Positions 30,262 through 60,011 are shown, counted from the stretch's first letter. The stretch is 64,000 bases of DNA from Candidatus Babeliales bacterium (GCA_963743635.1 CAVUQO010000002.1:512001-576000), one strand, 5' to 3'. Numbers and translations are program-made. Notes: generated by a model not told the origin, from the sequence alone.

Positions 30262-31239
30262 TTATTGGTTTTGTCTACAATATGGACATGTTTTAGTGAT
30301 ATTGGGATCATAGAGATTATTGAGATCGATACACTCTTTATGGAATTTATGTCTGCATCTTAATGATTTAATGGGGCGAGCACTATCCATCGTGGAATAG
30401 CATATGCTGCACTTGTTATCGGCGTTCTGAATTTCTTCAGGCATATCTGCTGCTGGCATAGATTCTTTTATTTCGCTTACCAAAAACCATGCAACATTTC
30501 GATTGTTCTGCTCAGCAGTGAATGCATGTAACGCTGAATGATCTTCTGTGTTATCAACATGGCCTTCTAGTAATCGTTCAGTATTGCGTGACTTCTTATG
30601 ATTAAGATATGCCAAACCTGCACCAATAAGAATAGCGGCACCGGGTTTTAAGATAGAATCCTTGGTTCCATTCCACAGTATCGGCTTCACAATATCAAAA
30701 GATCCTGGATATTTTGTATTTAAGGCATAACATTCGCCGACGACTGTCAGAACACCTATTGTGTTTGCAAGAAGAGCAATAGATTTGTAGAATAGACCGG
30801 TGGTAAGGATGCTCTCGAGTGCATCATGAATATCACGCTCATTGCGTAATGTTGCGATCGTGTTTTTCGCCGATTTCTTATCATGAGCTTCATAGGTAAT
30901 AGTGCCTTTGACCTCATAGACACGATCATAGTAGGTATGATCAAATCTATTAATTGGTGTGCCAAGTGTACTAGTATCTATTGCAATTGAATCATTGAGC
31001 TTAAGCTTGGCTTTCCAGTCATTTTTCAATTGTGTGGCCCCTTGAGGTTCCAGAGATTTAAGAATTCCGGCCACTTCAGGCATAGTTGGTGCTTGCACCA
31101 AAAGAAATGGTCTTTCTAATAAGCTTGCCTTCAGCAGTTTCAGCGATTTTGGTAATGGATCCATTGCCTGCATAGTCCCCTGGGAAATTAATCCCATGGT
31201 GAATGCGAGTAGTATTGATTTTAAAGTCGTCTTTTTCAT
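30262..31239 (-). CDS. Secreted protein with C-terminal RING finger (E3 ubiquitin ligase candidate)
   Basis: Signal peptide ending QAM; CSIC...CRHKFHKECI...CPYCR RING-H2 pattern; two TM-like segments. Confidence 0.85.
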   Translation of the reverse strand: MKKTTLKSILLAFTMGLISQGTMQAMDPLPKSLKLLKASLLERPFLLVQAPTMPEVAGILKSLEPQGATQLKNDWKAKLKLNDSIAIDTSTLGTPINRFDHTYYDRVYEVKGTITYEAHDKKSAKNTIATLRNERDIHDALESILTTGLFYKSIALLANTIGVLTVVGECYALNTKYPGSFDIVKPILWNGTKDSILKPGAAILIGAGLAYLNHKKSRNTERLLEGHVDNTEDHSALHAFTAEQNNRNVAWFLVSEIKESMPAADMPEEIQNADNKCSICYSTMDSARPIKSLRCRHKFHKECIDLNNLYDPNITKTCPYCRQNQ

Positions 31240-31277
31240 TATGGAGCCTTCATATTCGTTATTTTAATTGAGATCAA

Positions 31278-32474
31278 TTATTGTTGTACTCTTCTACAGG
31301 TTGGGCACGTGAGCGCGTGATGATTTGTTCTTTGTGTTGCAAACCACCGATTGATGCAATCTGCATGAAATGTGTGTGCGCAAGTCAGTACTCTTAGATT
31401 ATTATCATGAGATGGTATAGCATCCTGACAAATAGCACATTCACTTTCTTCCGCTTCATTTGCATCTACGTGACGTTCAGCTACTGGGTGCGCTGCAACT
31501 GCGGCTCCTGGTAGTGCATATGCTGGTTCTGGTGCTTGTGCAGGGCGGTAGCTTTCAGCGATATGGAGCGCATTGTATGCGAGATGTACTCCACTAATAC
31601 ACATGAAGCCTATACAGACTCCTGCCACTCGAGGGAACTGGGTGACTATTCTACTTAAGGCAGAAGTTACCGATCGAGCAACCAATGATGGCAAAGTATT
31701 TGGTTCGATTTGTTGTGTCGGTGGTGTAATACCCAGAATGCGATCTCTCATGCGATCGCCGAGCGCCTGTAGGTTCTGTAATGATTCAAGAAGTGTGTCT
31801 TCAAATATACTGCGACGAGCTCCGAGATTTTGTAATGCTTCAATAAGTTTATCGAGTAATTTTTCTTGTCTGATTGCGGGAGCTTGCACCGAAGTCAATA
31901 TATGATATGCCGCGATTGGAGTAGTTACGACTCCTGAGCATAACGCTGCGCAAAATATGTCGTATTGTTCAGGATTGAGTCGGCGTAACCTTGCCAACAG
32001 TGTATCAATGTTGTTTGAAATATCTGCGTTGATGCGATTCATAGCAACAGTTAATCTTGTTGCAGTCGGCATAATGCACGAATAAGAAGCAGGTTCTATT
32101 ACTACAGGTTCTGCTGCTTGTTGGCGTGGCGCAATATCAAAAAGTTGTCTGCCGGTAAGTCTATTTAAAGCGTCTAGACCGGGTGTGATAACTGAGTAAT
32201 GTCTGTCGTTTTCATTTGGTTGTTCCTGTACGGCAGGAGCTTGTTCTTGTCTTCGTGGCATGACATCAAAGAGCTGTCTGCCGGCGAGTCTATTTAGCAT
32301 CTCTAGGCCGGGTGTGATAACTGAGTTATGTGTGCGTTCAGCTACTGCTGGTGCGGGTATTTCTGATATCTGAGAACTTGGCGATAATCGACCATTCATT
32401 GCCTGCATAGTTCCCTGGGAAATTAATCCCGCGGTGAATGCGAGTAGTAATTTTTTTATAGCTGTTTTCTTCAT
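31278..32474 (-). CDS. Secreted protein with C-terminal RING-H2 finger (E3 ubiquitin ligase candidate)
   Basis: Signal peptide ending QAM; CAIC...CAHTFHADCINRW...CPTCR; internal 26-aa duplication HxSVITPGLxxLNRLxGRQLFD. Confidence 0.88.
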   Translation of the reverse strand: MKKTAIKKLLLAFTAGLISQGTMQAMNGRLSPSSQISEIPAPAVAERTHNSVITPGLEMLNRLAGRQLFDVMPRRQEQAPAVQEQPNENDRHYSVITPGLDALNRLTGRQLFDIAPRQQAAEPVVIEPASYSCIMPTATRLTVAMNRINADISNNIDTLLARLRRLNPEQYDIFCAALCSGVVTTPIAAYHILTSVQAPAIRQEKLLDKLIEALQNLGARRSIFEDTLLESLQNLQALGDRMRDRILGITPPTQQIEPNTLPSLVARSVTSALSRIVTQFPRVAGVCIGFMCISGVHLAYNALHIAESYRPAQAPEPAYALPGAAVAAHPVAERHVDANEAEESECAICQDAIPSHDNNLRVLTCAHTFHADCINRWFATQRTNHHALTCPTCRRVQQ

Positions 32475-33726: not shown

Positions 33727-33975
33727 TTACTGTCGGAAGAATCGCTTCATTATAAAAGCTCTTCCTGACTGAGTCTTTAAATATTTCTCAAATTCTATGG
33801 CTGTAGATTTTTCCATAAACCCTGTGTGAGCAATCATATTCCAGGGTCTATATTTAGCTGTATGAGGTGATCCACCAGTATTGTGAATTCGTAAACGATT
33901 AGAAATGTTTGCTGTGTAGCCAATGTAAATTTGGTCAGGATCAGCAATCGAATGGAGTAAGTATACGTAATACAT
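33727..33975 (-). CDS. Small GIY-YIG nuclease family protein
   Basis: YYVYLL...IYIGYT...RLRIHN...TAKYRPW...FEKYLKTQSGRAF. Confidence 0.92.
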   Translation of the reverse strand: MYYVYLLHSIADPDQIYIGYTANISNRLRIHNTGGSPHTAKYRPWNMIAHTGFMEKSTAIEFEKYLKTQSGRAFIMKRFFRQ

Positions 33976-34133: not shown

Positions 34134-34209
34134 TGGTCGGGGTGGCCAGACTCGAACTGACAACCCCTCGCTCCCAAAGCGAGTGCGCTACCAATTGCGC
34201 TACACCCCG
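34134..34209 (-). tRNA. tRNA-Pro(TGG)
   Basis: Reverse complement CGGGGTG...CTCGC-TTTGGGA-GCGAG...GTTCGAGTC...CACCCCGACCA. Confidence 0.96.
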
Positions 34210-34356
34210 ATGACCAAATTTTCAATCATAGATTTGTTATTCAGACGCTTTATGTATAAAGCAGAATAAGATTTACCCTAATTTAGCTGTTTTTCAGGCG
34301 CATTGCAACTGAAATTCATAAATTAATTACGCCATAGCACTATGCGCGAAGGCGAA

Positions 34357-34433
34357 TGGGGTGAATGGTGGGAATCGAACCCACGACCACCAGAGCCACA
34401 ATCTGGTGCTCTACCAACTGAGCTACATTCACC
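34357..34433 (-). tRNA. tRNA-His(GTG)
   Basis: Reverse complement G-GTGAATG...CCAGA-TTGTGGC-TCTGG...CATTCAC-CCCA, with G-1. Confidence 0.96.
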
Positions 34434-34622
34434 ATGTCAATTTTAGGGTACGGGTTAAGTATACGGTGTTTATTGCAAAAATCAACGAATCCGACACGGT
34501 TTGTGCATTTTATCTTACTCGCGATATATGGTATCATAGAGTATATAAAGTATCAGTTCAGGTTGCAATGATCGAATCGGGTACAATTTTATACGTAAAT
34601 CATCAAATAAAAGGGGGTCATG

Positions 34623-37198
34623 ATGGCTCAAAAACATAGCTGGATTAAGGTCTTCGGTGCCAAAGAGCACAATCTAAAAAATATTAATGTCGATATTCCC
34701 AAGGATGCGCTGACGGTTATTACCGGGCCATCTGGATCAGGGAAAAGTTCCTTAGCGCTCGATATTCTCTTTACTGAGGGTAAACGGCGTTATATGGAGT
34801 CATTGTCTTCTTATGCCCGTCAGTTTCTTGGTGTCGCTAAAAAGCCTGATGTAGATCGTATTGATGGGCTGTGTCCAGCAATTGCAATTGAGCAGAGTAC
34901 GGTTGGTTCAAACCCACGCTCAACGGTCGGCACCATTACCGAAATTTATGATTATTTACGCGTGCTTTATGCGCGTATCGGTCAAGTCCATTGCCCTAAT
35001 TGTCGCATGCCTATTCGCGCAGAATCTCCTGAAAATATTACTGCTATGTTACTTGAAAATTTCAATGATCGCCGTATTGCCATTGCGGCGCCTGCAGCGC
35101 ACGAAAAAAAGGGTGAGTTTACCAATGAAATCCTTGATCTTTTTATAAAGGGTTTTTATCGTCTACGCATCGATGGCGTCATGCATCGATTTCGACTCAG
35201 AAGCTGAAGTAAAGGCGCTTAAGTATCAAAAAAACATACAAACACACCATTGACGTGATGATCGATCAGATTGACGTACATCATGATGATCGCGCGCGTT
35301 TGCAAGAAGCGATCGAAACCGCATTTAAATTGAGCGGCGGCATGGTAAAGATTATTGTCGGTGAGCAGGAGCATATGTATTCATCGCATCGCATGTGTAT
35401 TCGCTGCGCCGAATCGATGCCAGAACTCGAGCCGCGATTTTTCTCATTTAACTCACCGATTGGTGCGTGTGAGCAGTGTCATGGTATTGGCATTATTCAC
35501 GAATGGCCATGGGAAGAGGGTGATGCTGAATCATGGAAGGAGCGATATCCGGATTATTTTGGCCATCAGTGCGCAAGAAAAACACTTGTTCGCAGTGTCA
35601 TGGCAAGCGTTTGAATAAATATGCATTGGCGGTCACTATAGGCAGCAAAAATATTTATGACGTTTGTGAACTTTCGGTAAAAGATTTATGTGCCTTTTTT
35701 GAAACGCTCAAACTCAATCGATACTGACCAAGAAATTGGCGGAGGTTATGGTACAAGAAATTTCAAACCGATTACACTTTTTATATGATGTTGGTCTTTC
35801 CTATCTTTCGATGAATCGTTCAGCTCGCACACTTTCAGGCGGTGAAGGGCAGCGCATTCGCCTTGCAACGCAAATTGGTTCCGCATTGAGTGGCGTTTTA
35901 TATATTCTTGATGAGCCAAGTATCGGTTTACATCAGCGTGATAATGATCGCTTGATTGAAACCTTAAAAAAGTTACGCGATCAGGGCAATACGGTGGTTG
36001 TCGTTGAGCATGATATGGATACGATTGAACAATCAGATTATCTCATTGATATGGGGCCTGCAGCCGGCGTATTGGGCGGGCAAGTTACCGCGTTTGGTAC
36101 ACCAAAACAGGTTGCGCGCAAATACCGATTCTTTAACGGGTGCCTATTTAGCTGGCCGACGTGCTATTGCCGTGCCTAAAGTGTTACGAAAGCCAGAAAG
36201 CTGGTTAACGCTTGCACATGCTCGAAAAATAATTTAAAAGATTTGACCGTACAAATTTCCGCTTGGCGTTATTTGTGGCGATTTCGGGCGTTTCGGGTTC
36301 CGGTAAAAGTACGCTCATTATGCAAGAATTAGTTCCTGCAGTAGAACGAGAATTGCTCGGCAACAGACAGTTCCCGTGCCAGATGCCGATTCAGGCGATT
36401 TGCAGGGCGCAGCACATGCTTGAAAGTATGGTGGTGATTGATCAAAGCCCGATCGGCCGTACGCCGCGCTCAAATCCAGCCACCTATTTGGGTGTGTTTG
36501 ATGAGATTCGTAAGTTGTTTGCGAGCTTGCCAGAAAGTAATGCGCGCGGGTATAAAGTTGGGCGCTTTAGTTTTAACGTGCCTGAAGGGCGTTGTTTTGA
36601 ATGCCATGGTGATGGTGTTATTAAAGTGACGATGCATTTCTTGCCTGAGGTAACGATGATATGTAAATCATGTAACGGCAGACGCTATAATAGCGAAACA
36701 CTTGCACATTATCTATAAAGGCAAATCGATTGCAGATGTTCTTGAAATGACTGCTTATGAAGCGCTTGAATTCTTCAATGCACATAGCACGATTGCAAAA
36801 CGATTACAGTTGCTGTGCGATGTTGGCCTTGATTATCTTAAATTAGGCCAAGCATCAACGACGCTTTCAGGCGGTGAAGCACAACGTATTAAGCTCGTTG
36901 ATGAACTTGCAAAGCGCGGCAATAAAACGCTTTACATTCTTGATGAGCCAACAACTGGTTTGCATACAAGTGATATTGAAAAATTACTTGATGGTGCTTA
37001 ATCGGCTTAGTCGATAAAGGTAATTCAATGATTGTGATCGAACATAATCTTGATGTGCTCAAAACCGTTGATTATCTGATTGATCTTGGCCCTGAAGGGG
37101 GCGATGCGGGCGGTACGATTGTAGCTACCGGTACGCCGCGTGAAGTAGCCAAAGCTCCGGCAAGTTACACCGGCAGATATCTGAAGAAATTATTGTAA
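34623..37198 (+). CDS. uvrA: Excinuclease ABC subunit A (many apparent frameshifts)
   Basis: [63 protein letters not shown], ending [11 protein letters not shown]. Confidence 0.96.
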
Positions 37199-37372
37199 CG
37201 CGTACAGCATTAAAAAGGTTAAGGGCCTCGAAGATACTTTCTTCGAGGCCCTTTTTTATGTTTGCTGATTACTATTCAGACGGCTTCTTGTTAGATGTGA
37301 GAAGAATGCAAAGAACTACGTTGCTCTCATCTAATTCTCGCTTTCAATAACTACTTTCAATAAGTTGAGACC

Positions 37373-37840
37373 TTAGGGATATGAAGGGGCCCATAGAATA
37401 TTTTGATTTTGTATGATATTACGAATGATGCGTGTGGCTAAGTGCCGATATGTGGGCTGCATCGCATAATAGGCATCTAATACAGCCGCAATCAAATTAA
37501 ATGGGATTGGATTTTGTGGGTTATTTTGGACAAAGTTCACAAGTTCGTAAAATAAGTTCATATTATTATCTCTCAGAGCCTCAAGTTGTCGAATAATAGT
37601 TAGGTATGTCTGTGGAAAACATAGGAATTGACCATTGTTTTCATAGATTCGGTAGTCGCCATCTTCTTCTTGAAGTGTAATGCCATTGAGATGTCGAGTC
37701 TGCAATTCTGTAACAATGGCATCATCGTTCATGGCGTCCACTTGTAGCTTTATGTGTGCTTGAGGACCAAGATTCATTGCCAATACTGACTGTCCATGGC
37801 AAACCAGGGCTACCATAGTTAATAGTTTTAAAATCTTCAT
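37373..37840 (-). CDS. Secreted orphan protein, array unit 1 (leader type A)
   Basis: MKILKLLTMVALVCHGQSVLAM leader. Confidence 0.8.
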   Translation of the reverse strand: MKILKLLTMVALVCHGQSVLAMNLGPQAHIKLQVDAMNDDAIVTELQTRHLNGITLQEEDGDYRIYENNGQFLCFPQTYLTIIRQLEALRDNNMNLFYELVNFVQNNPQNPIPFNLIAAVLDAYYAMQPTYRHLATRIIRNIIQNQNILWAPSYP

Positions 37841-38079
37841 ATTCTTTTTTCCTTTTTTATTAATGGTTAATGTTTGTTATCAACTATAAGAATACTAAAA
37901 GTTAAAGTTAAAAATCAACAATTTTCAACACTTTTATCATTTACAGGTTGAGATTTTGGTGCGCTGCGCGTGAAATAGCCAAAATTCCGGCACGTTACAT
38001 AGGCAGATATTTGAAGAAATTATTGTAATCGAACATAAAAAGAGTTCCCGGCGGCCACTCATTTTATGTTCTTCGTAAA

Positions 38080-38567
38080 TTATCGACTGGGTTTTGGTAC
38101 GTGCGTTAAATTACGATTTTTTATGATGTGCTTGATAACTGCGTCGCTTTCTTTTTTTTCATAGTCGTTATAATTAATGATGTCATAACCAACAACAGCT
38201 GTAAGTAAATTTAATGGTAAGAGGTTATTTTCGTTATCGGGATTTAGGACGAAATTTTGAATTTGATTGAATGTTCCGCAATCAGTTAGGCGTAAATTGG
38301 CAAGTAAATCGCAGGTTGCAAGATACTGTCTTGCCCTGCCTAAATCGATATATTGATTTGGTTGATTCGGCTGTGTAGCATATACCCATATTCGACCATT
38401 TTCCACGTACCCAAATCCATTGAGTGTTTCTGAGCGCTCTTCGACCATGTCATCACTCATATTTTCTAATTCCGTATAATTTGTTGTCTTTGTTGCTCTG
38501 TCAGTGCCAGTGCTAATTGTCCGTAGCACAGCAGGGTGATGAGAGCCATTAATTTTAGGTTTTTCAT
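38080..38567 (-). CDS. Secreted orphan protein, array unit 2 (leader type A; frameshift near 38475)
   Basis: ATG at 38567 gives MKNLKLMALITLLCYGQLALALTEQQRQQII; a shift joins it to ELENMSDD... of ORF 38080..38592. Confidence 0.75.
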
Positions 38568-38899
38568 ATTCTTTTTCTCCCTTTTTGGTCACGCCATAAC
38601 TTTAGCGACGGCGGATTGTGAATATTAATACTATAATCATTTACTAGCTTAATAAAAGTTAAAGTGAAAAATCAACAATATTATCGCCCAATGACTTATG
38701 ATTTCAGGTTAAAAAGGCGAAATTTATGGTTTGTAGTCTCAAGGGGGAGACTGCCCAGGGTGGGCCACAAAAGCCTTATTTTAGCTGTCGAAAAGCTGAA
38801 GGTGATATTTGAAGAAATTATTGTAACGCGTACAGCATTAAAAAAGATAAGGGCCTCGAAGATACACTCTTCGAGGCCCTTTGTTATGTTTTCTGATTA

Positions 38900-39427
38900 C
38901 TATTCCTTTTTCCCAAGAAGTGAGGGATGAGTGGGTAGTTGAGGTCGTCTTAATGTTATGTCGACACTCGATGCCGGAACATTTGGCGCGGTAGGCGTGC
39001 TTTTTGATGATGAACCACGGTATGCAGGAAGATTGGTCTTTTTCGCTTGCTCTTCTTCTTCTTCTTCCACTGGAAATGCAGGCCGTCTGAGTTCTGCTTG
39101 TGAGGCTTGTGGTTGTTGCTGAAGGAGGGAAGGATGGATAGGAAGCTCAGGCCGTCTCAATGTTGTGTCGACACTCGATGCTGCGCTGCTTGAAGATGCA
39201 GGGGCTTTTTGGGAGCTTTCGGTGAGACTTAAGCGTATTGCCTCTTGTATCATTGCATCCTCTTCTCGAGCTCGTGCCTCTGCCGCTGCTTTTTGGGCAT
39301 CTATGATACGTTGAGCCTCGTGTTGTTTTTTAACTCTTTCAAGCGCTTGCTCGCTCATTGCGAACATTGGTTGGGCACAGAAAGTTAATGTTAGTGCAAT
39401 AATGTTTATTATTTTGCATGTCTTCAT
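38900..39427 (-). CDS. Secreted protein with UIM-like motif, array unit 3 (leader type B)
   Basis: Leader ending MFAM; EEDAMIQEAIRLSLTES; repeated SSVDxTLRRPxLPxHPSLL. Confidence 0.78.
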   Translation of the reverse strand: MKTCKIINIIALTLTFCAQPMFAMSEQALERVKKQHEAQRIIDAQKAAAEARAREEDAMIQEAIRLSLTESSQKAPASSSSAASSVDTTLRRPELPIHPSLLQQQPQASQAELRRPAFPVEEEEEEQAKKTNLPAYRGSSSKSTPTAPNVPASSVDITLRRPQLPTHPSLLGKKE

Positions 39428-39637
39428 AGTACGTGGATCCTTTGAAAAAAGGGTTATAAAAGTTCATTATGTTCAAAAATAAAAAAGGGAGCGCGAAAAA
39501 CGCAATATATTTCATTGGGTGTCGGAATGTGTGGCTCGATTTTTGGAGAATGTGCGATCGCTCTAGAGTAAAGTAGGCCTTGGGAATACATGCTCTAAGG
39601 CCTACTCGTATTGCTTAGCGATTCTTTTGGCAGTTGA

Positions 39638-39922
39638 TTACTGCTTGCGCGTTCGCTTACGGTTTCTGAATAGCTTTTCAAGCGCTTTATCAAGTTTTGC
39701 TTCCGCTCGTTCCTGTTCAAGTAGATCCGAGGCTTTTTCAAGTTGTTCGTTCGCGCGTTGAATGTCTAGTATTGCTTCTCTTCGAGATTTTGTAATATCT
39801 GCCTGCAGTCTAGCATCGAAAGCTTGTTCTGTTTGGCTGAGTCTCTCTCTTTCTGTCATCGCCAGCATTGATTGCCCGTAGCACACCAATACCACGAGAG
39901 CCATTAATTTTAGATTCTTCAT
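39638..39922 (-). CDS. Small secreted coiled-coil protein, array unit 4 (leader type A)
   Basis: MKNLKLMALVVLVCYGQSMLAM leader; basic C-terminus RNRKRTRKQ. Confidence 0.72.
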   Translation of the reverse strand: MKNLKLMALVVLVCYGQSMLAMTERERLSQTEQAFDARLQADITKSRREAILDIQRANEQLEKASDLLEQERAEAKLDKALEKLFRNRKRTRKQ

Positions 39923-40001
39923 ATTCTTTTTCTCCTTTTTTAGTCACGCCATAGCTTTAGCGACGGCGGATTATGAAGATTAATGTTAATTATCAATTAC
40001 C

Positions 40002-40031
40002 AGCATAATAAAAGTTAAAGTTAAAAATCAA
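40002..40031 (-). promoter_or_regulatory. Putative sigma70 promoter repeated upstream of type-A array genes
   Basis: Minus strand TTGATT-N18-TATGCT; related AAAAGTTAAAGTTAAAAATCAACA blocks at about 37897, 38655, 40010, 42781 and 43519. Confidence 0.55.
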
Positions 40032-40283
40032 CAGTTTTCGACTTTTTTGTATCATTTGCAGGTTGAGATTTTGGTACGCCGCGCGTGAAATACCCAAAAT
40101 TCCGGCATGTTACATAGGCAGATATTTGAAGAAATTATTGTAACGCGTACAGCATTAAAAAGGTTAAGGGCCCCGGAGATACGCTCTTCGAGGCCCTTAT
40201 CTTTTGTTTTCTGACTGCCCTAGAGTAAAAAAGAAGGGCGCAAAATGCTATGCATGGTGTTTGGAATGTATAAATGCATAATA

Positions 40284-41996
40284 CTAATCCCCATTCCATC
40301 TTCCTAGATCGAGTATCGTAATTAATTTACGAGCTTTTATGGCAGCTCGGCCAGCATTTCTGTTCTGTGCTACTTCTTCAAATATTGCACGAGCCCCTTG
40401 ATAGTCCCCACTATTTGCAGCGTTTCTACCTTCTGTCAAACGAGCCCAAGCCGCTTGTTCAGCGGGGGATTCATCATAAAAAGAAGATAATGATGTTTGT
40501 GCCGCGCCCCCAAACTGAGGGGTTGTTTGCTCTCGAGTAGAAGCCTGGCCAGATTCAGTTTGAACTACCGATTTTTTACTACATGGTGGCATTAAGAATG
40601 TGGCATAAAGTTCGGTGTCAGTTGCCGTTTCAGTTGATTTTGAGGTGAATTGAATCCGAGTGACCGTGAATTCAGAGTCAACAAGTTTGAATTCATTGCC
40701 AAACATATCCGGACCGAGGCCTGAAATGCCTAGTATTTGCAGTATGTTATTTCGCTGTACTGAACTCAAACCATCTATGAAATTAAAACGTTCAGTTTCT
40801 TCCCAAATGGCCTTTCCATCAGCATCTACCCAAACATTTTCTCCAATCATGTTCCGGACAAGCTTTGCTCGTGCGCTCGGCTGATTTCGTGCAAGTACTT
40901 CTTTTATATACGGTGGATTTAAACGACCCAATGAGATATGCAGATTGTTGCCTGTTAATACTTCATTTCTTTCTTGGGGTGTATAGGTTCTGAATGTTTT
41001 TGGCAATTTGGCTGAATCCATAAAACAATTGCCATTCTGGGTTTGGACTCTTTGTAAATGATTTTTAATGGTATCAAGGAGCGATAGGAGTGCTTCGCCT
41101 GATTGGCGCGATTGGGGGAGTATTGCGAGCGGAACCCATATTTTTTGATGACTTCCATACGGAGGCCATTTTATGCTGCCAGTTGTTAAATCCAGAGGTC
41201 CGCATTGCTGTGAGACAGACCACTCATTGATGGCGGTTTCCACTGTTCTTACTACTTGATTGATAATATCATTTCGTCTTGGATCTCCATCATACATATC
41301 ACCAAGAGTTGGCAGCGTAATGTGAATATTGTCGGGATCTTGTTCGTAAAAAGAAAGGCATTTTTGTTTTGGTGGTATGAGAGTGAGCAATCGTATTGGT
41401 GCTGTTGGATGTGATTGATTGTAGGGTAAGATTTGCTCGTTGTTAAATCTCACTATTTCTTTGTTTTTTGCATTAATTTGCTCAGGAGTTGCGGTTGATG
41501 AATCGATTTTTTGTGGTCGTGCTTTGTGGAGGTCTGTGGGCAGAACGGAAGCCGCATTATGGTATCCAGCGTTGATCCGATTAATCTTTTCTTGCTCTAT
41601 TGGGAAAAAATTGCAGTCCGGATCTCTGATATTATTGATTTGAGTAATCTCGTCTTTTACATTCCGTATAAGGCCTCGAACCTTTTGTATTACGGTTGGC
41701 AAGTGTTCAACGTTGATGATTAAAGCATAGGTTCTTAAGGTACCTTGCTGAGAGGGTACATATGCCGCAATAGGGGCAACCTGGGAGGCGGATGATGCTG
41801 CGCTTCCTGAGGATACCGGGGGCCTTTGGGAGCTTTCGGTGAGACTTAAGCGTATTGCCTCTTGTATCATTGCCTCCTCTTCTCGAGCCCGCGCCTCTGC
41901 CGCTGTTTTTAGTGCTCGCTCGTTCATCGCCAGTACTAATTGGCCATAGAAGGTAAGTGAGAGTATTGCAATCACTATTTTTTTGAATGTCTTCAT
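40284..41996 (-). CDS. Secreted protein with UIM-like motif and putative 2H-phosphoesterase domain, array unit 5 (leader type B)
   Basis: Leader ending VLAM; EEEAMIQEAIRLSLTES; IHITL and LHISL motifs; C-terminal TPR-like helix pair. Confidence 0.7.
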   Translation of the reverse strand: MKTFKKIVIAILSLTFYGQLVLAMNERALKTAAEARAREEEAMIQEAIRLSLTESSQRPPVSSGSAASSASQVAPIAAYVPSQQGTLRTYALIINVEHLPTVIQKVRGLIRNVKDEITQINNIRDPDCNFFPIEQEKINRINAGYHNAASVLPTDLHKARPQKIDSSTATPEQINAKNKEIVRFNNEQILPYNQSHPTAPIRLLTLIPPKQKCLSFYEQDPDNIHITLPTLGDMYDGDPRRNDIINQVVRTVETAINEWSVSQQCGPLDLTTGSIKWPPYGSHQKIWVPLAILPQSRQSGEALLSLLDTIKNHLQRVQTQNGNCFMDSAKLPKTFRTYTPQERNEVLTGNNLHISLGRLNPPYIKEVLARNQPSARAKLVRNMIGENVWVDADGKAIWEETERFNFIDGLSSVQRNNILQILGISGLGPDMFGNEFKLVDSEFTVTRIQFTSKSTETATDTELYATFLMPPCSKKSVVQTESGQASTREQTTPQFGGAAQTSLSSFYDESPAEQAAWARLTEGRNAANSGDYQGARAIFEEVAQNRNAGRAAIKARKLITILDLGRWNGD

Positions 41997-42204
41997 GAGA
42001 CCCTCAATTCTTTGAAATAAGATTATAAAAGTTCATTATGTTCAAAAATAAAAAAGGGAGCGCGAAAAATGCAATATATTTCATTGGAGTCAGAATATGC
42101 GGCTTGATCTTTGGAGAAATACTTGTAACACGTACAGAGATAAGGGCCTCGGAGATACGCTCTTCGAGGCCCTTATCTTTTTATTCTATCGGCAGCTTTC
42201 GCAT

Positions 42205-42693
42205 TTACCGTGGCATGTTCATTGTTACTATGTGGTTGATGACAGAACCTGGCGCCGAGTTCCCTTCAAAAATAACAAGCATTGGATACTGCTTAAGTTC
42301 CTCAGCATTTTGTATATTTGCTGGGAAGGACGTGTCTTGGCTTCTAGAAGTCTCTATTGCGGCCACATAGCGGTTGTAAAAGTCAGGATTAGATGCTTTT
42401 AATGCTCTCAGCTGATTGAGTAAAGATATATAATATCTAGCAGTTCCCCACATACGTGGAGCATCAGGGGAATTGCCTATGATAAAGTTAAGTACCGGAT
42501 TGCCTTCATCATCTTCCTGCATTTTCACGTCATTAATTTTAATACCATTAAGAGCATTGATTTCAGCCTTTAACGTGTCTGCTTCCATCTTCATCACTGC
42601 TTTATCAATCTCTTCTCCTGAGATGCTCATTGCCAGCATTGATTGGCCGTAGCACACCAATACCACGAGAGCCATTAATTTTAGATTCTTCAT
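42205..42693 (-). CDS. Secreted orphan protein, array unit 6 (leader type A)
   Basis: MKNLKLMALVVLVCYGQSMLAM leader identical to unit 4. Confidence 0.8.
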   Translation of the reverse strand: MKNLKLMALVVLVCYGQSMLAMSISGEEIDKAVMKMEADTLKAEINALNGIKINDVKMQEDDEGNPVLNFIIGNSPDAPRMWGTARYYISLLNQLRALKASNPDFYNRYVAAIETSRSQDTSFPANIQNAEELKQYPMLVIFEGNSAPGSVINHIVTMNMPR

Positions 42694-43010
42694 ATTCTTT
42701 TTCTCCTTTTTTAGTCACGCCATAGCTTTAGCGACGGCGGATTATGAAGATTAATGTTAATTATCAATTAACAGCATAATAAAAGTTAAAGTTAAAAATC
42801 AACAATATTATATATTAAGTTTTAAATAAGGCTTAAATTTACTATTTTTCGCTGGAATTAGTACATTTAGGAGGATGTAGGGCAGGGTAGAATAGGTGAA
42901 GAAAATAGTTGCAAGACGTGCAGTATTAAAAAGATAAGGGCCTCGGAGATACGCTCTTCGAGGCCCTTCTGGTAATAATATTGGACTATTTTCTTCTGCT
43001 GAGCAGATTA

Positions 43011-43466
43011 TTACTTAATATTTATTGTGTAATTCCGATTTTGCATGATGTGAGCGATTATGTCTCTGGCAAGGGCGATGTCTTCATAATTATCACCAAT
43101 AACAGCTTGGAGTAAAGACCATTTCAAGGATGGATAATCTATACGTTTATAGTTATTCATAATGCTTTCGAATGTTGTCGCATCGGTTTCGCGCAACTCA
43201 TTGACCCATCCTAGAATCAATAAATATTCTCTTGGAGTGCATAACTTAGACGATGTCCCATCCAATTTTTTATAAAAATCTGACGACCCATCGCGATTGT
43301 AACCTATGCTACCGCCTTTTAATTTCGTCGCAATATTATCCACTTGTTGTTCGGTCATGCTATCTATCTCGTTCTTAATGACGGCTCTTTCCGCATCGTT
43401 AAGCGCCAGTACTGATTGCCCGTAGCACACCAATGCCACGAGAGTCATTAATTTTAGATTCTTCAT
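43011..43466 (-). CDS. Secreted orphan protein, array unit 7 (leader type A)
   Basis: MKNLKLMTLVALVCYGQSVLAL leader; weak similarity to units 1, 2 and 6 (LLxAV...HIxxNxN). Confidence 0.8.
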   Translation of the reverse strand: MKNLKLMTLVALVCYGQSVLALNDAERAVIKNEIDSMTEQQVDNIATKLKGGSIGYNRDGSSDFYKKLDGTSSKLCTPREYLLILGWVNELRETDATTFESIMNNYKRIDYPSLKWSLLQAVIGDNYEDIALARDIIAHIMQNRNYTINIK

Positions 43467-43628
43467 ATTTTTTCTCCTTTTTTATGAAGATTGTACTATT
43501 ACCAGTTATCAGCTTACTAAAAGATAAAGTTACAAATCAACAATATTGGTGATTTGTTGGTACATGCAGGTTTGAATCATGATATTTGGCCAGTTTTCTT
43601 TGTCCTTTTCCGAGGCAGGCCACGAAGA

Positions 43629-46295
43629 TTATTGGCTATCGAACGGTCGTTCTTTTAGCTTCCAAAGAAGATCAAAGGCCATTTTTGGTGAGAGCTCATC
43701 GTAATTGAGTGTCCTGAAGGGATTGAGAATTTGCTCGAGGACAGCCGCTTTTTGATGCGCTTCTTTGTAAGCATTCAAAAGTTGCTTGTTTTCGGTGCGT
43801 AAAGCCGTTAGTTGGTGGCCGAGGAGGGCGTCAGTTTCCTGATCGCGGACAGCGCCTTGCATGCTGCGAGCTAATGCCGCGCTTTGCTGCTCTTCGCTGA
43901 CTTGTAAGGTTTGCAAAATATGTTCAGCGCGTGTAATGACTGCGCGTGGCAATTCGGCTCGTTTTGCCACTTCTACGCCAAAGCTGCCATCGGCAACGCC
44001 CTTAACAATTTGATGCAGTAGTACAATGCCATGTTTGCCATTACTGCTTGCCGCATAATAACTCGCAATGCCAGGCAGATAATCTTGTAGGTGCGTAAGT
44101 TCATGATAATGGGTTGCAAAAAGGCAACGCGCTTTGATGTGCGTATGGATGTATTCCACTACCGCTTGCGCGATTGCAAGTCCATCGAAGGTACTCGTAC
44201 CGCGTCCTACTTCATCAAGGATAACTAAACTTCTTTCCGTTGCATGTTGGCAGATATGTGCCGTTTCTTCCATTTCAACAAGAAAGGTGCTCTTCCCTTG
44301 CGCCACGTTATCGCCAGCGCCGATGCGCGTAAATATGCGATCCAAGAGCGGTAATGATGCTGCTTTTGCCGGCACGTATGAACCAATTTGTGCCATAATT
44401 GAAATGAGTGCAACCTGGCGTAGGTAGGTTGATTTGCCGCCCATGTTTGGTCCGGTGATGATCCATAACGATTCTGCATCGGTGAGCATCGTATCATTTG
44501 GAATGAAACGACAATCCAAGCTTTGTTCAACAACCGGATGGCGGCCTTGTGTAATTGCTATTGAACGTGCATCATTCCACGTTGGGCGTATATACCCGCG
44601 TTCATAAGCCGTATATGCAAGGCTTAAGAGTACATCAAGATGGGCGAGTGCATGCGCTGCCTTGCGCAACGGATGTATTTGCTCAAAGACCTGCGCTTTG
44701 ATTTCTTCAAATAACTGTTTTTCAACGGCATCGATTTCATTACGTGCGGTGACTAGTTCATGCTGCAGATTTTGGAGCTCGGGCGTGATATACCGTTCGC
44801 GGCCGACGAGTGTTTGTTGGCGCTTATAGTGTGCGGGCACTAAATCAAGATTGGTTTTGGTAATTTCAATGTAGTAACCATGCACGTTATTATAGCGAAT
44901 TTTGAGTGAATTAATGCCGGTTGCTGCTTGTTCTCGCAATTCAAGATCAAGAATGTTTTTATGCGCATTGTGCACGAGTGAACGCATGCGATCAAGTTTG
45001 GCATCAAATCCTTGTTTGATGATCCATTCTGTACTGGTATCGGTATTGAGTGCACGCTCGAGTAGATCACATAATGCGCTAAAATCGCCCAAATACTGAT
45101 GTATGCTTGCAAAGATAATCGTCTTTGTGTGCGGGTAGAGCAGTTCGCGCAATTGTGGTAATCGCGAGAGTGATTCATGCAATGCCTGATAATCATGCAT
45201 ATGCGCGCGATTGAGTGCGATGCGGCCGATGATACGTTCTAAATCGCCAATTCCTCGTAAACCTTTTTGCGTTTGCTGCATGAGCGTAATGTGTTGCATA
45301 AAGGTGGCAATAATGTCGTGCCGATGCGCTATTGCATCCTGTTTGACGAGCGGGCGCAGGAGCCATTTTTTGAGCATGCGAGAACCCATTGAGGTGGTAG
45401 CCGTATCGAGAACTGAAAAAAGTGTGTGCGCCGTACTGCCATCATGATTGTTTTTAACGAGTTCTAAATTGCGTTGCGTTGCCGCATCGATGAGCAAAAA
45501 ATCATCCGGTTCATAAAAATGAATGGAGGTGAACTGTTCAAGGGATGATGATTGGGTGCGTTTAAGGTAGGCAAATAAATTGTAGAGTGCTTGTTGTAGT
45601 GCTGCATCAGTGCTTACCTTATCATGCGTTTCTCGATGCAATGTACGTTTGATGAGTGCGCGTATGCTATCGGTTTCATCATGATCATGCATGATGGTGG
45701 TGAAGTAGCCGAGTTGTTTGAAATTTTGTTGCAGCTGTTTTGCTTCAGACGATTGCGGAATTAAAATTTCATCGGGGAAAAAGCGAGAGAGCTCGGCCTC
45801 CAGTTGTTTAACGCTGTCTGTAGGCAGGATCGTGGCAAAAAGTTGTGCGGTTAATAATTCGCCAAATACCAAGCCCCATGATGTTTTAAGCGGTACGAAG
45901 GAAAATAAATAGGATGCAGATTTTTCATTGAGCAGCGTACTTTCAACGAGGGTGCCGGGAGTGAGCAATTGTGTGACGCCTCGTTTAACGACAGTGCCTG
46001 GCTTTGGCTCTTCAAGCTGATCGCAGATGGCAACTTTAAAGCCGCCTTTAACCAGCTTTGATACATAATGATCTCGCGCATGGACAGGGACGCCGCAGAG
46101 CGGGATCGGTTCCCCCTTACTTTTGCCTCGTGCGGTGAGGGTAATGCCTAAAAAGGCCGCTGCGGTCTTCGCATCATCATAGAAAAGCTCATAAAAATCC
46201 CCCACCTGGAACAAAAGGAGTGCGTCAGGATACTCGGCCTTTATGGCCTCAAATTGTTGCATTAAGGGGGTGGATTCTTTTTTATCTATGTCCAT
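43629..46295 (-). CDS. mutS: DNA mismatch repair protein MutS
   Basis: TPLMQQ, GDFYELF, ITGPNMGGKSTYLRQ, STFLVEM, DEVGRGTST, FATHYHEL. Confidence 0.97.
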   Translation of the reverse strand: MDIDKKESTPLMQQFEAIKAEYPDALLLFQVGDFYELFYDDAKTAAAFLGITLTARGKSKGEPIPLCGVPVHARDHYVSKLVKGGFKVAICDQLEEPKPGTVVKRGVTQLLTPGTLVESTLLNEKSASYLFSFVPLKTSWGLVFGELLTAQLFATILPTDSVKQLEAELSRFFPDEILIPQSSEAKQLQQNFKQLGYFTTIMHDHDETDSIRALIKRTLHRETHDKVSTDAALQQALYNLFAYLKRTQSSSLEQFTSIHFYEPDDFLLIDAATQRNLELVKNNHDGSTAHTLFSVLDTATTSMGSRMLKKWLLRPLVKQDAIAHRHDIIATFMQHITLMQQTQKGLRGIGDLERIIGRIALNRAHMHDYQALHESLSRLPQLRELLYPHTKTIIFASIHQYLGDFSALCDLLERALNTDTSTEWIIKQGFDAKLDRMRSLVHNAHKNILDLELREQAATGINSLKIRYNNVHGYYIEITKTNLDLVPAHYKRQQTLVGRERYITPELQNLQHELVTARNEIDAVEKQLFEEIKAQVFEQIHPLRKAAHALAHLDVLLSLAYTAYERGYIRPTWNDARSIAITQGRHPVVEQSLDCRFIPNDTMLTDAESLWIITGPNMGGKSTYLRQVALISIMAQIGSYVPAKAASLPLLDRIFTRIGAGDNVAQGKSTFLVEMEETAHICQHATERSLVILDEVGRGTSTFDGLAIAQAVVEYIHTHIKARCLFATHYHELTHLQDYLPGIASYYAASSNGKHGIVLLHQIVKGVADGSFGVEVAKRAELPRAVITRAEHILQTLQVSEEQQSAALARSMQGAVRDQETDALLGHQLTALRTENKQLLNAYKEAHQKAAVLEQILNPFRTLNYDELSPKMAFDLLWKLKERPFDSQ

Positions 46296-59374: not shown

Positions 59375-59448
59375 TGCGCCTGGTAGGACTTGAACCTACA
59401 ACCAACGGATTCGAAGTCCGGTACTCTATCCAATTGAGCTACAGGCGC
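59375..59448 (-). tRNA. tRNA-Arg(TCG)
   Basis: Reverse complement GCGCCTG TAGCTCAATTGGATAGAG...CTTCGAA...GGTTCAAGTCC...CAGGCGCA. Confidence 0.93.
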
Positions 59449-59544
59449 GGATTGATACTCTTATTTGTACCATAAAAGGAGTAATTTTGCGAGAAAAAAC
59501 ATGTAAAAATTTTGTTTTTTAGCTATTCTTATGAAAATATTGAT

Positions 59545-59618
59545 GCGCCCGTAGCTCAGGTGGATAGAGCGGTAGATTCCTAATCTGCAGGCCACAGGTT
59601 CGAGTCCTGTCGGGCGCA
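59545..59618 (+). tRNA. tRNA-Arg(CCT)
   Basis: GCGCCCG...GTAGA-TTCCTAA-TCTGC...GGTTCGAGTCC...CGGGCGCA; no encoded CCA. Confidence 0.95.
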
Positions 59619-60011
59619 AACTGAATTTGAAAGCAGTATTCATCAGGACGAGAAGTTTATCCTGAGGGCTCCTGAGCGAAGCCAAGGGAGCATCGAAGGG
59701 AGTCCTGTCGGGCGCAAACTGAATTTGAAAGCAGTATTCATCAGGACGAGAAGTTTATCCTGAGGGCTCCTGAGCGAAGCCAAGGGAGCATCGAAGGGAG
59801 TCCTGTCGGGCGCAAACTGAATTTGAAAGCAGCATTCATCAGGACGAGAAGTTTATCCTGAGGGCTCCTGAGCGAAGCCAAGGGAGCATCGAAGGGAGTC
59901 CTGTCGGGCGCAAACTGAATTTGAAAGCAGTATTCATCAGGACGAGAAGTTTATCCTGAGGACTCCTGAGCGAAGCCAAGGGAGCATCGAAGGGAGTCCT
60001 GTCGGGCGCAA
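59602..60011 (+). repeat. 98-bp tandem repeat (4 units plus a terminal partial unit), each unit starting with the tRNA-Arg 3' end
   Basis: GAGTCCTGTCGGGCGCA at 59602, 59700, 59798, 59896 and 59994; units differ by only two single-base substitutions. Confidence 0.97.

Follow-up and report, generated by a model that had tools for sequence, protein, structure and literature searches.

The window analysed here, a stretch of 64,000 nucleotides from a Candidatus Babeliales bacterium (GCA_963743635.1, CAVUQO010000002.1:512001-576000, i.e., positions 512001-576000 of contig C2 of genome G000), harbors an array of seven minus-strand genes for likely secreted proteins (O1 to O7) between uvrA and mutS. 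Ordinary homologous recombination probably gave rise to this array and reshuffled it, with no dedicated integrase involved. Two reused boxes, one made up of the uvrA tail and its terminator and the other of a promoter and signal-peptide region, bracket the cargo of these genes. The genome has a size of 1.45 Mb in three contigs and is 85% complete. The seven genes, which had already been noticed in a preliminary description of the window, were all recovered. While uvrA (34620..37198, plus strand; final codons ...GRYLKKLL*) is broken into several open reading frames (ORFs), mutS (43629..46295, minus strand) is intact. Since frameshifts also interrupt other housekeeping genes in this assembly, single-base breaks may represent sequencing errors.

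The live uvrA tail, of which 69 nt (37130..37198, plus strand) were copied within the array, is followed by a hairpin (T0, 37221..37253) that is terminator-like on both strands. Six candidate copy sites (T1 to T6) were compared with 300 shuffles of each site, using the uvrA tail alone or together with the hairpin. The combined match exceeded all shuffles at T1, T2, T4, T5, and T6, while at T3 (about 39541-39605) 243 of 300 shuffles were equally good. For the coding tail alone, no shuffle equaled the match at T1, T2, or T4, whereas 3/300 did so at T5 (marginal) and 16/300 and 228/300 at T6 and T3, respectively (not significant). Thus, the assignment of one uvrA tail and/or hairpin to each gene in the preliminary description holds for tail plus hairpin at five of the six sites, but was overstated for the coding tail, which is clear only in T1 and T4 (69 nt each) and in T2 (23 nt). 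T2 (38804..38881, plus strand; hairpin at 38849-38881) lies next to a 121-nt spacer (38683..38803) that revealed no second match in the genome. T5 (42106..42174, plus strand) consists of a weak tail remnant (42106-42128) and a hairpin (42142-42174), and T6 (42897..42968, plus strand) of a degenerate remnant and a hairpin (42936-42968) identical to that of T5. Hairpins T0, T2, T4 (40166-40198), T5, and T6 share 88-100% identity, and a different hairpin (H1, 38031..38071) is located behind T1. The diverged hairpin of T3 (39573..39605) is 61% identical to that of uvrA, and its location and compensated pairs, rather than the alignment score, suggest homology to T0; four of its 14 pairs are altered on both sides, so that, if it is homologous, the preserved stem suggests selection on the hairpin structure. 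The hairpins have likely persisted because each convergent gene needs a terminator. When the whole genome was searched, copies of the uvrA tail and hairpin were found nowhere outside the array.

T1 (37958-38028) and T4 (40073-40143), both on the plus strand, descend from one dead tail copy. As had been reported before, both are preceded by the same junction, CAGGTTGAGATTTT, at 37944-37957 and 40059-40072, so that the complete units span 37944..38028 for T1 and 40059..40198 for T4 with its hairpin. In addition, they have in common a 2-nt insertion and a Thr-to-Ile exchange at a Thr that is kept in 20 of 20 relatives. Based on these common defects, a single, already dead copy was propagated, rather than a working uvrA end being displaced repeatedly. 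The expansion by 2 nt lies within a CG run (37967 and 40082), and the same kind of expansion was seen in the dead ligase tail of a relative (G013, L061:3476-3539). With regard to the live end, T2 is the most similar copy (93% over 102 nt), followed by T1 (89%), T4 (87%), T6 (84%), and T5 (74%). These values are unordered by distance, which argues for later reshuffling, and a simple ordered accretion, with the newest unit nearest to uvrA and divergence rising outward, was rejected on this ground.

At the other end of the genes, a start resembling a signal peptide was recognized by eye in each of O1 to O7. All seven are preceded by one of two conserved modules, whose succession (A, A, B, A, B, A, A) agrees with the preliminary description. 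The modules, all on the minus strand, were located at 37841..37935 (A, O1; with a putative promoter-like core and ribosome-binding site), 38568..38682 (A, O2), 39428..39550 (B, O3), 39923..40038 (A, O4), 41997..42118 (B, O5), 42694..42809 (A, O6), and 43467..43557 (A, O7). Integron cassettes mostly lack promoters and are transcribed from a single Pc promoter; here, a conserved module of its own precedes each gene, and sigma-70-like matches in the array were not above chance (21 versus 15.7 +/- 4.1). The module of O4 is near-identical to that of O6, and their complete leaders agree in 176 of 183 nt (96-97%) up to a sharp break 4 nt past the predicted cleavage site, after which unrelated cargo follows. 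The modules of O3 and O5 are 95% identical over 73 nt. Between both genes, identity was 95% for the promoter-like part and 89% for the region of the ubiquitin-interacting motif (UIM), but dropped to 65% for the signal region. In contrast, identity amounted to 43-58% in all pairs when 120 nt at either end of the mature coding DNA were compared. Judging from these values, leaders and terminators are far younger than the cargos. Young boxes around old cargo cannot result from duplication followed by even divergence, but fit recombination at the boxes, either as cargo replacement or as gene conversion.

The conservation of the leader module before the array genes was thus confirmed, but the module is not specific to the array: 17 of 22 nhmmer matches to leader A were located elsewhere in the genome, where they precede cargos of various kinds, frequently as small groups in tandem. 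Further tandem groups with leader A were observed at C2:420135-422186, C3:492089-495184, and C3:137785-140272, the first of them a triplet with non-coding flanks that are 86-89% identical and short cargos that differ.

Regarding the cargos, which had been described as divergent or unrelated, two groups have to be distinguished. O1 (37373..37840, minus strand, 155 aa), O2 (38080..38567, minus strand), O7 (43011..43466, minus strand, 151 aa), and, more weakly, O6 (42205..42693, minus strand, 162 aa) are full-length paralogs with 13-33% identity (family A). Over the mature part, O1, O2, and O7 share 24-30% identity, O6 being a distant member, and O2 carries a one-base frameshift near 38475, either real or a sequencing error. 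O4 (39638..39922, minus strand, 94 aa), in contrast, harbors a helical-looking cargo unrelated to family A in spite of its leader A, which bears out the earlier claim in this case. O3 (38900..39427, minus strand, 175 aa) and O5 (40284..41996, minus strand, 570 aa) both carry leader B. Cargos that are all simple full-length paralogs had been named beforehand as an outcome speaking against cassette-like growth; four of the seven cargos are of this kind, and the remaining three are not. The core of O5 is 57% identical to a protein of a relative (P0018), which carries a leader of type A and differs in its C-terminus. Together with the O4/O6 leaders, this supports the earlier proposal that the array grew at the tail of uvrA, diversified afterwards, and swapped cargo.

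Displaced gene ends similar to that of uvrA were also found elsewhere in this genome. A scan of all ORF ends resulted in a non-coding tail copy downstream in 30 rows and upstream in 22, many of which represent short spurious ORFs or paralog clusters. When the scan was restricted to genes of at least 150 aa in 20-kb tiles (1026 genes), 14 downstream and five upstream rows remained, and by our reading none of the five upstream rows concerned a housekeeping gene. In ten genes other than uvrA, a tail copy of 43-227 nt lies downstream of inserted DNA, and the end of six of these copies lies no more than 1 nt from the stop codon. The ten loci are holA, murC, ftsY, an ABC-F gene, prc, a metal permease gene, its binding-protein gene (troA-like), a Sel1-repeat gene, a hydrolase-like gene, and a gene that we take to be ychF by its sequence. 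NCBIfam named seven of them (holA below the cut-off), and the Sel1-repeat and hydrolase-like names were also obtained below the cut-off. Two rows of secreted paralogs and a second troA copy were left out of the codon test. Pooled over the ten loci, 57 synonymous and 28 nonsynonymous differences were counted, corresponding to a ratio of nonsynonymous to synonymous differences per site (pN/pS) of 0.13 (p ~2e-9 against a null model with neutral decay of the copy and only silent changes in the live gene); the end register of the ABC-F and Sel1-like loci was slightly off in this test. Without ychF, the counts were 36 and 27 (p 2e-4). Read plainly, both tails would once have been working alleles in different lineages, so that a foreign allele may have taken over the gene end, brought the cargo along, and displaced the old end downstream. 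The inserts measure 0.17-5.7 kb and revealed no recombinase match inside. The identity of T1 with uvrA likewise stops exactly at the stop codon, as in holA, prc, and murC.

Some loci deserve separate mention. At C3:664002-670722, two tail copies of the troA-like metal-ABC binding-protein gene are located among three tandem opposite-strand paralogs of about 580-620 aa, forming a smaller counterpart of the uvrA array. A very recent addition was observed at C2:297296-298152, where a 102-nt holA tail copy (99%) adjoins an insert of 650 bp that carries a gene for a YafQ-family toxin. At C2:189560-191667, a gene head (84 coding nt and upstream DNA) of what is presumably a uracil-DNA glycosylase-like gene is duplicated 1.3 kb upstream (96%) around a gene for 296 aa, the mirror image of tail displacement, which favors homology over an enzyme specific for 3' ends.

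Altogether, we suggest the following course of events. DNA carrying a uvrA end and a convergent secreted gene would have entered by one crossover in the tail, leaving a dead tail behind the cargo, in analogy with the ten other loci. This dead copy was then copied itself together with its junction, as evident from the defects common to T1 and T4. Afterwards, cargo may have been added, reordered, and exchanged by way of the tail/terminator box and the leader box, through crossovers or gene conversion. That boxes and cargo are decoupled is seen directly; the routes could have been unequal crossover or conversion at the boxes, or excision followed by re-entry. Related strains would be a probable source of the exchanged alleles via uptake of DNA, and comEC, dprA, recA, and mutL were each matched above the cut-off in the genome.

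Several observations weigh against this scheme. The uvrA copies T1 and T4 do not display the synonymous bias with regard to the live gene (pN/pS 0.92-0.95), so that a foreign-allele origin at uvrA itself is a supposition and the founding event could have been a plain tandem duplication. The pooled bias stems mainly from ychF, prc, murC, and ftsY, while the copies of the metal permease gene (0.71) and troA (1.04) revealed none, and the ten loci were hand-picked from the 30 downstream rows plus ychF. Gene conversion of leaders within the chromosome explains the O4/O6 pair as well as an import of cargo does. Furthermore, the competence genes show capacity, not use, and neither family A nor O5 was matched in any of 260 other genomes of the phylum.

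These points lead to the strongest alternative, a plain tandem cluster with birth and death of genes in place, which would have arisen by one duplication breaking inside the uvrA end, followed by unequal crossover, fast divergence of the cargo, and gene conversion of leaders and terminators without DNA from other strains. T1 and T4 have one junction in common and deviate from uvrA in a manner that resembles neutral decay, which agrees with this, as do the paralogous cargos in four of seven genes, the 75 local repeat clusters in the genome, and the tandem secreted paralogs with common leaders that are frequent in relatives. It does not account for the cargo of O4, which is unrelated to family A despite a near-identical leader, nor for the identity of T1 stopping exactly at the stop codon before an unrelated hairpin. 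The same kind of stop is seen in holA, prc, and murC, whose synonymous bias speaks for foreign alleles. Moreover, the similarity of family-A homologs in other datasets to array members (up to 33% identity to O7) is on a par with that among the members themselves. We therefore regard the tandem cluster as rather unlikely, and prefer homologous recombination at the two boxes with exchange of cargo.

An integron-like system or att array would use a trans-acting recombinase that places cassettes at the tail or hairpin of uvrA. Such a system had been considered in view of the appearance of the array, but is very improbable after our analysis. A restored gene end with a displaced fragment at the far end is a signature of integrase islands, as far as described in the available part of the source (PMC4383910), and this trait is present at uvrA and the ten other genes. 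An internal integrase and one fixed att core, the other traits of such islands, were not found. The search for recombinases across the genome that had been proposed before did reveal three tyrosine and two serine recombinase matches, two of which we take to be XerC/D by their sequence. The nearest of them lies 91 kb from uvrA, and none of four matches to IntI (TIGR02249) in this 85% complete genome reached the cut-off (best 76 bits versus 265). No RYYYAAC...GTTRRRY pair 35-130 nt apart, i.e., an attC core in a simple pattern search without covariance model, was detected on either strand of 37001-43700. The junctions of the 11 loci shared no 5-mer beyond chance, the top one being present in five of 11, as reached in 303 of 1000 random sets. 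On these four results the integron/att model was rejected. Besides, eleven unrelated targets would require as many specificities, the changes in T1 and T4 would not be tolerated in a working uvrA end, and both copies go back to one dead copy. An artefact of an error-prone long-read assembly, as the frameshifts in uvrA and other housekeeping genes might suggest, can practically be dismissed, since the copies differ by many substitutions (72-93% identity for the longer matches), each unit carries a different ORF, hairpin changes are compensated, and homologs of family A and O5 occur in independent datasets.

For comparison, 30 relatives, all from other genera, were retrieved. In 20 of them the stretch behind uvrA could be inspected and was found to harbor variable, mostly signal-bearing orphan genes, but no copy of the uvrA tail. 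mutS follows uvrA in the same direction in 18 of the 20 stretches (the 18 that include mutS), from which an inversion of mutS in our genome follows. This inversion with respect to the uvrA-mutS-rplU order of the relatives adjoins the distal end of the array, with rplU still in place. A tiled scan of 2.0 Mb from six relatives (1377 genes) resulted in nine downstream and six upstream rows. By our reading, three of the nine downstream rows were housekeeping tails, presumably of DNA ligase, yicC, and mnmG, and two of these were synonymous-biased (pN/pS 0.07 and 0.10); one upstream row contained a ribD-like end copied at 100% identity. In two relatives, displaced tails with a synonymous bias that terminate at the stop codon were seen at L129:9432-11699 (397 nt) and L061:1018-3539 (62 nt). 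Thus, the tail scar is present in the family, apparently at a lower density than in this genome in this small sample.

The cargo proteins offer few hints on their function. None of the seven revealed a Pfam match above the cut-off. A profile of the four family-A paralogs, searched against 1.84 billion representatives, retrieved 13 proteins, namely the four members themselves, eight credible homologs, of which seven have a similar leader, and P0011, which was dropped as a repeat-protein artefact. A word-indexed search with O7 yielded only O7 itself among 31 candidates, and a metagenome scan with O7 one locus with a match to the leader only. The best of five structural models of O7 (predicted local distance difference test, pLDDT, of 81; others 49-59) displays a small alpha/beta/alpha domain, for which neither Foldseek nor VIA-align (best Z 4.7) revealed a clear match and ESM Atlas gave nothing; a new fold cannot be derived from this.

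A segment of about 42 residues is common to O3 and O5 (83% identity), including a UIM-like motif (39215-39262 in O3 and 41832-41879 in O5), while the rest of O3 is of low complexity. PF02809 (UIM) was the top match in both, covering model positions 1-16 of 17, but its scores of 12.9 and 14.6 bits do not reach the cut-off of 21. O5 additionally carries two Hx[T/S] motifs, HIT at residue 225 (HxT, 41313-41324) and HIS at residue 353 (HxS, 40929-40940), both kept in P0018. All ten best named matches by ESM features belonged to the 2H clan (~0.90, 109-129 common features). A PDB sequence search gave keratin only (E 0.2), and the pLDDT of the predicted structure (38) was too low for a fold search. 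Because the fold model failed, the assignment of the O5 core as possibly 2H phosphoesterase-like is a lead only. O5 and a nine-member cluster around P0018 (P0018-P0026; 559 versus 577 aa, with one or two UIM-like repeats) thus would represent a likely secreted protein joining UIM-like motifs to such a core. Scans of genome contigs with P0018 and P0005 and a viral scan with P0018 revealed no match. A scan with the hairpin pattern resulted in 16 viral matches, none of them with wider similarity, and none in phages.

The term effector used in the preliminary description can be inferred from the signal-like leaders, the UIM-like and 2H-like features, and the lifestyle of the group, and we consider it likely that the cargo products are exported and act on a protist host. 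Dependentiae are known as protist parasites with reduced genomes and eukaryote-interaction domains (PMC4776705). Tandem arrays, signal peptides, and competence are not mentioned in the available part of that account, and a literature search, mostly outside subscription journals and without supplements, revealed no publication in which arrays or tail scars of this kind are described for Dependentiae.

Further genes of the window are mentioned here for completeness. Two signal-bearing genes in tandem at 30262-32474 encode C-terminal RING fingers above the Pfam cut-off and are candidates for eukaryote-like E3 ligases. A stand-alone GIY-YIG nuclease gene (33727-33975) adjoins two tRNA genes (34137-34432) upstream of uvrA. 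At 59461-59977, tandem repeats of about 82 nt with a period of 98 nt and 99-100% identity adjoin tRNA genes at 59375-59618. An Rfam scan of the window detected five tRNAs only, none of them within the array.

In this genome and its relatives, orphan genes that are lineage-specific and bear signals occupy the gaps between core genes. From the array and the ten scars of single events, a concrete and testable route emerges by which such genes could arrive and be refitted with a promoter and an export tag without mobile elements, and a tail copy terminating at the stop codon with mostly synonymous differences may serve as a cheap marker of additive gene gain in any genome. One might go further and envisage, for this lineage of Dependentiae, an integrase-free cassette system fed by competence, with the last 40-230 bases of housekeeping genes as landing pads throughout the genome, leaders as a second exchange box, and host-directed secreted proteins circulating among strains as tail-tagged circles, the uvrA pad being the one loaded and reshuffled most, with divergent alleles of one new fold family; we put this forward tentatively, as an idea that may well not hold as a whole.

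The mechanism itself has close published precedents. Among systems that reuse a promoter and secretion-signal module before unrelated cargo is the terminal reassortment of type III effectors, from which the uvrA array differs by leaders that look Sec-type and by an exchange tied to a tandem array. Integrase islands, with phage e14 in icd as an example, resemble it by the restored gene end and the displaced tail downstream, with synonymous differences at several loci. In Islander islands the target gene is restored and a displaced fragment is left (PMC4383910, available part), whereas here eleven different genes are involved and the inserts lack a recombinase and a common att motif. For rhs, displaced 3' fragments behind an intact gene were described, and circles with homologous re-integration by a single crossover, without integrase, as well as transfer between strains were proposed in the part available (Jackson et al. 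2009, PMC2935791). Similarly, displaced uvrA 3' fragments are strung downstream of uvrA (clear in T1, T2, and T4, weak in T5). In rhs, however, a polymorphic toxin whose tips vary and which is accompanied by immunity genes serves as anchor, and the displaced cargo consists of silent toxin tips and immunity genes, while here the anchor is a housekeeping gene with unchanged product and the cargo comprises whole opposite-strand genes with their own promoter-like and signal-like leaders; moreover, the displaced piece measures no more than 23-69 nt, and recombination also takes place at the leader as a second box. The effector-immunity arrays of the T6SS (type VI secretion system) in Vibrio cholerae, which arise by sequential displacement, are likewise additive and integron-like in appearance without an integrase, and homology-facilitated illegitimate recombination followed by homologous exchange was proposed for them, as far as the available text goes (Kirchberger et al. 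2017, PMC5361080); the uvrA array differs in having no effector-immunity pairing or secretion-system context and no sequential similarity to the live end. In the lpl genes of Staphylococcus aureus, tandem host-interaction paralogs are reshuffled at conserved boxes, so that the evolutionary unit differs from the ORF (Tsuru and Kobayashi 2008, PMC2568036, available part). There, the box is central in the ORF, whereas the boxes of the uvrA array flank the mature cargo, one of them originates from a neighboring housekeeping gene, and non-homologous cargo is included. By analogy, the uvrA array thus appears to work like the displacement in rhs and the Vibrio T6SS arrays combined with an lpl-like shuffling of boxes, but is a member of none of these families and no integron.

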